A stretch of 64,000 bases of DNA, from the sequence record OZ035795.1; one strand, written 5' to 3'. Position 1 is the stretch's first letter. Each line of letters starts with the position of its first letter. Positions 14,365 to 42,917 of this stretch are shown here, one piece after another. The notes beneath the pieces are model-generated. The model saw only the letters and a program-made list of their open reading frames with translations. It was not told the DNA's origin and did no database searches. The translations under genes were made by a program, and so were the position numbers. This stretch comes from Krischvirus LF73P4.

Positions 14365-14404
14365 TCGATGCGTGCCATTATAGGCATCTAAATCGCTCTG
14401 TCAA
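14365..14404 (-). promoter_or_regulatory. sigma70-like early promoter
   Basis: Minus strand TTGACA-16-TATAAT just after the hoc terminator. Confidence 0.5.
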
Positions 14405-14409
14405 GCACT

Positions 14410-14441
14410 AAAAACAAAAAAGCCACCCCGAAGGATGGCTG
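14410..14441 (-). terminator. rho-independent terminator after hoc
   Basis: AGCCACC-loop-GGATGGCT stem with A-run on plus. Confidence 0.55.
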
Positions 14442-14451
14442 ATAGATTTCA

Positions 14452-41236: not shown

Positions 41237-41300
41237 TTTGGTTCTCCTTTGTTGTCGATGTGTGCATTATGCTATACCCTATTCCGGTTGTCAACACCTA
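41237..41300 (-). promoter_or_regulatory. PeSL-type early promoter cassette
   Basis: TTGACA-17-CATAAT; leader GGAGAACCAAA-ATG. Confidence 0.55.
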
Positions 41301-41304
41301 AAAA

Positions 41305-41336
41305 CGAAAAAGCCACCCTTTCGGATGGCTTTTTGA
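41305..41336 (-). terminator. bidirectional-looking terminator
   Basis: AGCCACCC-tttc-GGATGGCT flanked by A-run and T-run. Confidence 0.6.
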
Positions 41337-41564
41337 TTATATTTTATTCACGTCCATTTGTATAGTAGTGTTTGAATCGACCTTTGCTAAACTAGTTAAA
41401 CATAGTAACCAATTCACCATCCCTTTCCAATGATAACCCTTCCTCGTCTTAGACGGGTCTTCCGATTCGGCAGTAATTGAACACGCGAAAGTATGAGGAA
41501 GCCAAATGGTTGTGTTAATGCTAGTTTTCTTTTACTTCTGATATGTATCCCACGGTGACTAACA

Positions 41565-41963
41565 TTAAGCCAGTCGAGTGAGTTTATAAATTGTTTTAAA
41601 GCATAGAGCTTTGATATCGTCTAAAACGCTCTGTAACGAGCTATCAACATCATTATAAATCTCACTAGCCATTTGCGTTAACTCTTGCAAATAGGCAATT
41701 TCGCTAATCTCCTTGCGGACGACCAACTTTGGCTGATAACGACCAGTGATCCCAATATTGGTTTCAGTGAAATTATCAACCAATTCTTGCATTTCAAGAT
41801 AGAACTCTTCTAGAGCCTTATGTTTTGCATAAGATCCAGGACCAGTTACCCCAAAATGCGCAGAATGCATATAAGTAACACTCATCAGACATTCACCGAT
41901 AAAGCGGTCAACTTTATTAGCCTTTCCCTCTTCGGACGTCTTTAGAAAATCACTGAATTTCAT
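41565..41963 (-). CDS. Dps-like ferritin-fold protein
   Basis: Start at MKFSDF after GGAGAA; HSAHF..KHKALEEF..VDNFTE gives H-x11-H-x14-D-x3-E, the spacing of the Dps ferroxidase ligands. Confidence 0.55.
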   Translation of the reverse strand: MKFSDFLKTSEEGKANKVDRFIGECLMSVTYMHSAHFGVTGPGSYAKHKALEEFYLEMQELVDNFTETNIGITGRYQPKLVVRKEISEIAYLQELTQMASEIYNDVDSSLQSVLDDIKALCFKTIYKLTRLA

Positions 41964-42252
41964 GTTCTCGATTCTCCATATTATGCAACAGAACAAATTG
42001 TTGTGCGGCATATCCCCCCATAATAAAACACTGCCTAGAATCCATACATTTACTACGAGCATACATCTTCATAATATGGGCATGAAATTTCTGGCTGGTT
42101 TCAATGGAAGGAGATATTTTGTTTACATATACTATCATTGCGCCGTCGAAATAATCAGTAAAGTCACCAGTTGGATCATATTGATCAGCACTGACACTTC
42201 CGACCGCAGTCAAGCATATTGCCGCTGTTAGAGTTTTACGAATAAATGACAT
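41950..42252 (-). CDS. small secreted protein
   Basis: Signal-peptide-like N-terminus MSFIRKTLTAAICLTAVGSVSA. Confidence 0.45.
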   Translation of the reverse strand: MSFIRKTLTAAICLTAVGSVSADQYDPTGDFTDYFDGAMIVYVNKISPSIETSQKFHAHIMKMYARSKCMDSRQCFIMGGYAAQQFVLLHNMENREHEIQ

Positions 42253-42320
42253 AAGTCATTCCCCCAGATTGAAAATATTCAGTTATATTTATAATCTGGG
42301 GCTTTATTTATGATTAACTC

Positions 42321-42917
42321 TTATTTGGTAGTACCGTCAATAAAATGTTTACGGCACACAGAAACATATTTATCCTCTGCACCAACTTCGATTTGAGCAC
42401 CATCGCGAATAACATTACCCTCTTTATCTACACGAAGGACCATTGTTGCTTTCTTGCCACAATGACAAATACCCTTCATTTCGACCAGTTTATCAGCAAA
42501 TGCCATTAATGCCGCAGATCCTTCAAATAGATTGCCCTGAAAGTCAGTGCGAAGGCCATAGCACAGTACAGGGATATTAGCATCATCAACAAGCGCACAC
42601 AAGCCTAAAACATGCTCTTTAGTCATAAATTGGGCTTCATCTACAAATACTGCATCTGGACGCCATCGATCCGGTCTACGCTTACCTAACGATTCACGAT
42701 AAACCAAATCGAAAAGATCATCCGATTTAGTGAAGGTGATCGCTGGGGCACTTAGGCCAATTCGGGAAACGACTTCACTTTCTGAATCTCGATTATCAAT
42801 CGCTGGCTTAAGAATTAATACTCGCATATCACGTTCGGTATAGTTATAAGCACTTTGTAACAGAGAAGTTGATTTGCCAGCGTTCATAGATGCATAGTAG
42901 AAATATAATTGCGCCAT
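42321..42917 (-). CDS. tk: thymidine kinase
   Basis: P-loop MNAGKST; FVDEAQF; CHCGKKA; collinear with recalled T4 Tk. Confidence 0.93.
   Translation of the reverse strand: MAQLYFYYASMNAGKSTSLLQSAYNYTERDMRVLILKPAIDNRDSESEVVSRIGLSAPAITFTKSDDLFDLVYRESLGKRRPDRWRPDAVFVDEAQFMTKEHVLGLCALVDDANIPVLCYGLRTDFQGNLFEGSAALMAFADKLVEMKGICHCGKKATMVLRVDKEGNVIRDGAQIEVGAEDKYVSVCRKHFIDGTTK

Follow-up and report, generated by a model that had tools for sequence, protein, structure and literature searches.

The rI.-1 gene of Krischvirus LF73P4 encodes a predicted four-helix protein remotely related to Dps

We analyzed a 64,000-nucleotide stretch of DNA from the phage Krischvirus LF73P4 (sequence record OZ035795.1; 'the window' below), focusing on one small gene, rI.-1, whose product belongs to the protein family DUF5856 and appears to be a remote homologue of the bacterial mini-ferritin Dps. 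The gene is a minus-strand open reading frame (ORF) with its ATG at position 41963, and its 132-residue product begins MKFSDF and reads in full MKFSDFLKTSEEGKANKVDRFIGECLMSVTYMHSAHFGVTGPGSYAKHKALEEFYLEMQELVDNFTETNIGITGRYQPKLVVRKEISEIAYLQELTQMASEIYNDVDSSLQSVLDDIKALCFKTIYKLTRLA. An earlier note on this DNA had assigned a product of that length to the same interval without giving the strand; the ORF listing and translation bear the assignment out. Immediately upstream lies rI, which encodes the antiholin of lysis inhibition and whose final 14 nt overlap the start of rI.-1, and upstream of rI lies the thymidine kinase gene, tk (Table 1). The DNA in the 6 kb around the ORF is 96–97% identical to Krischvirus genomes (RB49, JSE and relatives; 97% for JSE), and the protein matches one in phage MIZ4 at 100% identity and its RB49 counterpart at 97%. 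The JSE annotation names the gene rI.-1 (alias MobD.6) and places it directly downstream of rI and tk. A longer reading of 165 residues, from an ATG at 42062, was rejected: it overlaps rI, the shorter start is the one annotated in JSE, and T4 RI.-1 also starts MKFSDF.

The block order tk-rI-rI.-1 is common to the window, JSE and T4, where the genes run tk, rI.1, rI and rI.-1 (T4p103, 128 residues, NP_049716, alias MobD.6). T4 RI.-1 and the window protein align by BLASTP over their full length (132 columns) with 33% identity, 56% positives and an expect value (E) of 1e-25. The earlier note, which was aware of no T4 counterpart, was therefore wrong on this point, since T4p103 is a syntenic orthologue. 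Both proteins are of nearly equal size and share the MKFSDF N-terminus; both genes lie directly downstream of, and overlap, rI, and lie downstream of tk; and both proteins keep H33, H36, H48, Y55, D63, E67 and Y126. They differ in that the loop between helices A and B is three residues longer (GPG) in the window protein, giving an H-x11-H interval rather than the H-x8-H of T4. In addition, T4 carries rI.1 (T4p105) between tk and rI whereas this phage has no gene there, and the overlap of rI with rI.-1 is 4 nt in T4 as opposed to 14 nt here. On sequence and gene order, we conclude that T4 RI.-1 has its Krischvirus orthologue in this ORF.

The product scores 75.1 bits against the Pfam model DUF5856 (PF19174; cut-off 34.6, E 9.8e-21) and matches PHROG 858 with an E-value of 3.6e-43, residues 1–131 aligning with profile positions 1–128 of 129. 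Three sets of relatives were used: an alignment of close homologues (A1), a set of 98 diverged relatives with a mean column identity of 27% (A2), and the 150 best family representatives, each at most 50% identical to any other and aligned to the family hidden Markov model (HMM). The His, His, Asp and Glu discussed below, together with Y55 and Y126, are invariant or nearly so in all three sets and are all found in the window protein. Homologues are present in 1,413 of 50,697 phage records (tblastn), and an exhaustive profile search returned 1,922 clusters at 50% identity with E≤1e-3, including 276 with E≤1e-10. In a collection of bacterial and archaeal genomes, a search with the profile of the close alignment found a single locus, a result that says little about distant cellular homologues. 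DUF5856 is a very large family, found here almost only in phages, and we interpret it as a pared-down derivative of the Dps lineage within the ferritin superfamily.

The single locus just mentioned is on a phage-sized contig of 178,077 bp (NZ_JBHSCL010000010.1) in a Flagellimonas marina assembly, and encodes an RI.-1 homologue 57% identical to the window protein, a figure also obtained for the homologue in the 178-kb Klebsiella phage phi1_146002. The contig probably represents a phage genome, either belonging to that assembly or contaminating it.

The gene itself is already catalogued: the identical MIZ4 protein is in GenBank, the T4 orthologue was named decades ago, and Pfam and PHROG both hold entries. 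Labels derived from Dps already stand in several records, and one 2024 paper called an Ackermannviridae homologue 'ferritin'; the copy in phage PP35 is labelled 'putative starvation-induced DNA protecting protein'.

A phmmer search of the window protein against all PDB chains returned almost only Dps matches, seven of them Dps chains with E-values below 0.01. The best were Bacillus anthracis Dlp-2 (1.2e-4) and B. brevis Dps (2.3e-4), followed by Dlp-1, Staphylococcus aureus Dps, MrgA and HP-NAP, and the ligand region tymHSAHFGVTGPGSYAKHKALEEFY is collinear with the Dps match in the phmmer alignment. The A2 profile likewise retrieved S. aureus Dps (6.5e-5) and HP-NAP (1.1e-4) from the PDB. With the A1 profile the matches to PDB chains were weaker than with the sequence on its own, since the GPG loop is missing from most relatives. 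When A2 was aligned to HP-NAP with hhalign (probability 81.5%, E 1.1e-5), H36, H48, D63 and E67 fell on H25, H37, D52 and E56; a four-sequence Dps alignment gave an E-value of 1.6e-6 and a probability of about 80%, and the family against Escherichia coli Dps alone gave a probability of only 31%.

Structure prediction, which had been proposed as a check, yielded a confident four-helix bundle. The predicted local distance difference test (pLDDT) score from AlphaFold was 86.3 with 13 input sequences and 94.3 with 98 (predicted template modelling score 0.88). Both models have one topology: a short N-terminal helix (residues 3–12), then helices A (17–37), B (44–73), C (88–103) and D (108–130), with a 14-residue extended crossover (74–87) joining helices B and C. 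Foldseek lists for the models consist almost entirely of Dps, with template modelling scores up to 0.74 and E-values of only about 0.02. These sequence comparisons and models support the conclusion that the protein is a remote Dps homologue predicted to fold as a ferritin-like four-helix bundle. By eye, D115-D116 and Y126 can also be matched to D126-D127 and W137 of HP-NAP; since a forced global alignment is unreliable past helix B, we treat this match as a lead only and do not claim equivalence of pore residues.

The putative ferroxidase ligands lie in the stretch H36-FGVTGPGSYAK-H48-KALEEFYLEMQELV-D63-NFT-E67, or H-x11-H-x14-D-x3-E, which starts at the C-terminal end of helix A and covers the first two thirds of helix B. 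The same spacing separates what we take, from the numbering in the Dps literature, to be the ligands of E. coli Dps (H51, H63, D78 and E82) and HP-NAP (H25, H37, D52 and E56). The sequences used for those two proteins are identical to PDB chains 1f30_A and 1ji4_A. As the earlier note had pointed out, then, the Dps spacing is reproduced exactly, and its only occurrence in the six-frame translation of the window is in this gene.

That exactness turns out to be peculiar to one clade. Across the 150 representatives the first His interval is x8 in 142, T4 among them, and only the Krischvirus-like clade has three added loop residues (GPG, GAG, GEG or GDG) that restore the canonical x11. The exact spacing is therefore real but a clade feature lying within a loop, and the three residues make the window protein look the most Dps-like of its family. 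The H-x14-D-x3-E part of the motif, by comparison, keeps its spacing in 148 of the 150. Few columns of the family are as well conserved as the four ligand positions: H36 and E67 are each kept in 149 of the 150 representatives, and H48 and D63 each in 148. Y126 is kept in 148 and Y55, which aligns with a Tyr of Dlp-2 and HP-NAP, in 145; D115 is kept in 138 and G71 in 132, and H33 is kept in 126, with Trp in 20 more.

A skeptical reader might regard the resemblance as accidental, the protein being a generic helical bundle that carries the motif by chance. Helical bundles match one another easily, the Foldseek E-values are modest, and the Pfam ferritin profile (PF00210) gives no match. Nevertheless, single-sequence and profile searches independently retrieve Dps with the ligands in register, shuffling the protein's own residues produced the motif in only 31 of 200,000 trials, and the ligand columns stand among the best conserved in 150 diverged relatives. 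We regard this explanation as close to refuted. The earlier note had itself raised coincidental spacing with no ferritin-like fold as what would undo its claim; what we find is a predicted fold, a motif that is rare by chance, and Dps matches in register.

The arrangement of the ligands suggests how they might be used. Two His residues sit at the junction of helices A and B, and the Asp-x3-Glu pair follows fifteen residues further along helix B. Because H48 and D63 are 15 residues (about 22 Å) apart on one helix, the four ligands cannot form a site within a single chain. Two chains might instead pair across a two-fold axis as in Dps, with H36 and H48 of one meeting D63 and E67 of the other; the smallest working unit would then be a two-fold dimer carrying two metal sites. 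Such sites would bind Fe(II) and oxidize it with H2O2 or O2, removing Fenton-active iron. Acting late, they would probably shield both the infected cell and the phage DNA building up in it against damage by iron and peroxide, and in some phages the protein may travel with the particle, possibly lowering Fenton chemistry in or with it. The near-invariance of the ligands in diverged representatives argues for functional constraint. We favor this Dps-type reading, with two-fold inter-chain ferroxidase sites that detoxify iron late in infection, at a probability of roughly 0.55.

A number of observations weigh against it. PF00210, the profile search suggested in the earlier note, gives no match to the window protein at E≤10 and is touched by only 2 of the 98 diverged relatives (best E 0.023), and against the NCBIfam Dps model NF006975 the protein reaches 15 bits where 114 are required. 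The protein consequently cannot be filed as a member of Pfam Ferritin, and its remote homology is seen through phmmer, hmmsearch and hhalign. Sequence similarity to Dps is reliable over helices A and B only and fades after helix B. The BC helix, which lies at the two-fold axis of Dps, is absent from both models, residues 74–87 being non-helical (with block-mean pLDDT of 93–95 in the second), and helix C has just 16 residues in both; Dps-like interfaces may therefore not be kept. The whole protein is acidic (isoelectric point, pI, 5.4; family median 5.3) and has no Lys-rich tail: residues 1–18 have a pI of 8.2 with three Lys and three acidic residues, as compared with a pI of 10.0 for the first 20 residues of E. 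coli Dps. A Lys-rich DNA-binding tail is typical of the E. coli and Mycobacterium smegmatis Dps proteins and is not found in all Dps; its absence here and the acidic character make direct DNA binding of the E. coli type unlikely. The counts for homologues detected in virions (described below) are low, and either a dense iron-loaded cage or a contaminating lysate protein could co-purify. Finally, we found no published measurement of metal binding, oxidation or oligomer state for any DUF5856 protein.

The length of some relatives is a further difficulty. About 30% of the representatives (45 of 150) exceed 160 residues and carry large extra regions. In 24 of these a conserved N-terminal DUF5856 domain is followed by mutually unrelated, highly variable C-terminal regions; 16 have N-terminal extensions that are disordered and in some cases Lys-rich (P0037, for instance, contains ...KPKAKPKTADKTKDKPK...); and in 5 the domain is embedded in proteins of 447–1,934 residues. 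Examples of long representatives are P0047, P0053, P0037 and P0093 (within P0034-P0171). Pfam scans of ten fused members identified no informative partner domain. Such frequent fusions are awkward for a closed cage like the hollow dodecamer of Dps with its 23 symmetry. A cage is an element of the Dps-type reading that we hold only tentatively and consider less probable than its absence. The Lys-rich N-terminal extensions recall the DNA-binding tails of Dps.

The picture of a Dps-like ferritin-fold protein drawn in the earlier note thus survives in part. The predicted fold, the ligands and the remote homology stand; on the other side, the protein falls below the curated Dps and ferritin HMM cut-offs, its models show no BC helix and it has no basic tail. 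Its remark that the protein is shorter than bacterial Dps is correct (132 residues, against 142–173 in the solved Dps chains matched). The window protein is not a canonical Dps.

The same properties bear on the label 'starvation-inducible transcriptional regulator', under which the protein would be a DNA-binding regulator of transcription. That label is attached to PHROG 858 and has passed into RefSeq product names (e.g. T4p103 and JSE EpJSE_00087), and there is a weak, partial match to PHROG 3636, 'DNA binding protein' (8.4e-7). Set against this, no Pfam family other than DUF5856 matches at E≤10, the models contain a four-helix bundle and nothing else, and the protein is acidic with no basic tail. 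The wording of the label seems to be a distorted carry-over of the former Dps name, 'starvation-inducible DNA-binding protein'. We consider a regulatory role of this kind very improbable, and note that the label could mislead automated functional summaries.

The surroundings of the gene bear on when it is expressed. An exact match to the T4-type late promoter consensus precedes rI, and a strong hairpin resembling an intrinsic terminator follows rI.-1 (Table 1). The T4 rI operon has a late promoter at the equivalent place (PMC2962797), and a rho-independent terminator after rI.-1 has been tabulated for the T4-like phage UFV13 (PMC5931544). Given this promoter match and the terminator-like hairpin downstream, rI and rI.-1 are probably co-transcribed late, besides being reached by early read-through. 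The 68-bp spacer at 42253-42320 that holds the late-promoter consensus is all that separates tk from rI.

Table 1. Positions of the features discussed in the text. Coordinates refer to the window, except in the last two rows.
Feature	Coordinates	Strand	Basis or remark
tk (thymidine kinase), upstream neighbour fixing the T4 synteny	42321..42917	-	ORF; annotated tk in JSE and T4
T4-type late promoter consensus TATAAATA	42286..42293	-	exact match in the tk–rI gap, 33 nt before the rI ATG; consensus match, putative function
rI (antiholin, lysis inhibition)	41950..42252	-	ORF; annotated rI at the syntenic site in JSE and T4
rI.-1 orthologue, DUF5856 / PHROG 858, predicted Dps-like four-helix bundle	41565..41963	-	ORF, family matches, JSE annotation, AlphaFold
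Putative Dps-type ferroxidase ligand stretch H36...H48...D63...E67	41763..41858	-	unique in the window; aligns with the ligands of Dlp-2, S. aureus Dps and HP-NAP
Codon of H36	41856-41858	-	
Codon of H48	41820-41822	-	
Codon of D63	41775-41777	-	
Codon of E67	41763-41765	-	
Intrinsic-terminator-like hairpin, 12 pairs then a T run	41307..41334	-	about 230 nt downstream of the rI.-1 stop
LIMEstone1 ORF078	L008:6137-6490		
Sajous1 gp217	L009:5948-6301		

The genetic literature on T4 offers another explanation. A 2019 review calls the role of T4 RI.-1 undefined (PMC6832632), and an earlier experimental account treats rI.-1 as an accessory of lysis inhibition (PMC2962797); neither mentions Dps or ferritin. 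The bundle could be an adaptor for protein-protein contacts that acts on RIII and through it on the RI-T holin complex, with the His, Asp and Glu residues serving a structural or regulatory purpose. The gene lies in the rI operon and overlaps rI in both the window and T4; T4 rI.-1 overexpressed from a plasmid slightly delays the collapse of lysis inhibition (PMC2962797; summarized in PMC6832632); and it strengthens the effect of rIII, relieves RIII toxicity and has no effect in an rIII mutant (PMC2962797; PMC6832632). However, these effects are small and come from overexpression only, and the family is widespread in phages that have no rI, t or rIII (RaK2, Ackermannviridae, a crAss-like phage). 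Its 1,922 clusters reach far beyond the distribution of lysis inhibition, and an adaptor role leaves unexplained why exactly four Dps metal ligands should be nearly invariant. We therefore judge an adaptor role unlikely. An accessory effect on lysis inhibition is compatible with the Dps-type reading as a downstream consequence: a milder redox environment could explain the slightly longer lysis inhibition seen on overexpression of T4 rI.-1.

The contexts of homologues outside the T4-like phages are informative in this regard. The neighbours of the homologue in Kuttervirus and Limestonevirus are DNA primase and a group of genes for virion proteins. A crAss-like phage carries it flanked by DNA ligase and thymidylate synthase, and the jumbo phage RaK2 has a homologue but none of t, rI, rI.1 and rIII (PMC3622015). 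Homologues placed away from lysis genes argue that the function is not specific to lysis inhibition.

Two homologues have been detected in particles. LIMEstone1 ORF078 (13.15 kDa) was found in virions with 28% coverage from 3 peptides (PMC3296691), and Sajous1 gp217 was found in CsCl-purified virions with 10 spectra and was assigned by Phyre2 to 'Ferritin' with 96.7% confidence (Harris et al. 2024, PMC10892097). Both are DUF5856 homologues. Each is 42–43% identical to the window protein, and the two, from Limestonevirus and Kuttervirus, match one another at 91%. The authors of the Sajous1 study proposed a 'Ferrojan horse' role at entry and reported seeing no dependence on this iron-uptake pathway in the one host tested (PMC10892097). 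The phiD3 proteome paper has nothing on a protein of the RI.-1 type, and the YerA41 paper mentions host dps only. Both virion-detected homologues neighbour other 'unknown structural proteins', and the Ackermannviridae homologues are unusually conserved, at 91–100% by tblastn in Dickeya, Salmonella, Shigella, Escherichia, Enterobacter and Yersinia phages.

It may thus be that the protein is a virion component that acts at entry, as a ferritin-like protein offering iron to host uptake or one injected with the DNA. The mass-spectrometric detection in purified virions comes from two independent studies (PMC3296691, PMC10892097), the genes adjoining these homologues encode virion proteins, and LIMEstone1 ORF078 has an annotated late promoter directly in front of it, just as a late consensus is present here. 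The proposed dependence on iron uptake was nonetheless reported as not seen in the one host tested, the 10 spectra for the Sajous1 protein compare with 924 for the capsid protein, and the LIMEstone1 preparation also yielded DNA ligase, PhoH and gp44 (PMC3296691). In T4-like phages, moreover, the gene lies among early and nucleotide-metabolism genes rather than structural ones. To our knowledge, RI.-1 has not been reported in T4 particles. We think a role at entry quite unlikely, although presence in the virion is compatible with the Dps-type reading. The idea that the MKFSDF... N-terminus might resemble the T4 capsid-targeting sequence was dropped: the Ackermannviridae homologues found in virions have no such N-terminal segment, and no conserved protease site is evident.

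Beyond rI.-1 lies a 328-bp intergenic gap (41237-41564) that contains no minus-strand ORF of at least 30 residues. After the terminator hairpin it carries a near-consensus sigma-70 promoter, TTGACA-17-CATAAT, at 41294-41266 on the minus strand. A segment of this region, 41255-41338, is repeated with 78–85% identity at 54609-54668, 14399-14448 and 51639-51683, and in related phages it occurs in 3–5 copies per genome. We take these repeats to resemble the mobile promoter/stem-loop cassettes of RB49-like phages. An Rfam scan of the window found nothing.

If the protein is indeed a ferroxidase, a simple and testable function would be available for a gene carried by more than 1,400 sequenced phages, T4 among them, and rI.-1, an orphan for 40 years, would gain a biochemical function. 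Control of iron and peroxide would then appear as a common need of large lytic phages, and iron and redox control would be tied to the long latent periods of lysis inhibition. In its broadest form the proposal is that DUF5856/RI.-1 proteins may be ancient, phage-restricted, working mini-ferritins with Dps-type two-fold sites, perhaps forming the smallest known ferritin-like cage; late in infection their task would be to detoxify iron and peroxide near phage DNA, and they would accompany the particle. They would constitute the most widespread viral ferritin-like protein, with a range covering T4, most Straboviridae and Ackermannviridae, jumbo phages and crAss-like phages. We find this combined proposal, in its functions and its range alike, on balance doubtful.

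We close by setting the protein beside known systems. The Dps examples compared were B. anthracis Dlp-2 (1JIG), S. aureus Dps (2D5K), HP-NAP (1JI4), E. coli Dps (1DPS) and M. smegmatis Dps2 (4M32), and the phage protein is 10–40 residues shorter than Dps. Classical ferritin, bacterioferritin and rubrerythrin have a di-iron site inside the bundle, formed by Glu and ExxH on helices B and D; no ExxH motif occurs in the 132-residue sequence, read directly, which sets the protein apart from the ferritin or bacterioferritin type with its site inside the bundle. All of its conserved ligands are on helices A and B. The 'unknown structural protein' of Ackermannviridae has the same ligand set, matches DUF5856 with an E-value of 8.8e-29 and shares the late promoter upstream. 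It differs in its length of 117 residues, in having no N-terminal helix, in its H-x8-H interval, in a location beside DNA primase and virion-protein genes with no rI nearby, and in its detection in purified virions.

A further parallel is with the canonical Dps proteins encoded by Lactobacillus plantarum myoviruses (PMC6669764) and by 'Gratiaviridae' and other gut phages (PMC8008677), which embody the same idea of an iron and peroxide detoxifier supplied by the phage and whose genes are also found near DNA replication and metabolism genes (PMC6669764, PMC8008677). The gut-phage survey that discusses phage Dps leaves out DUF5856 (PMC8008677). According to their papers, those proteins are ordinary Dps recognizable by homology, whereas DUF5856 is a separate lineage, far more diverged and far more widespread.

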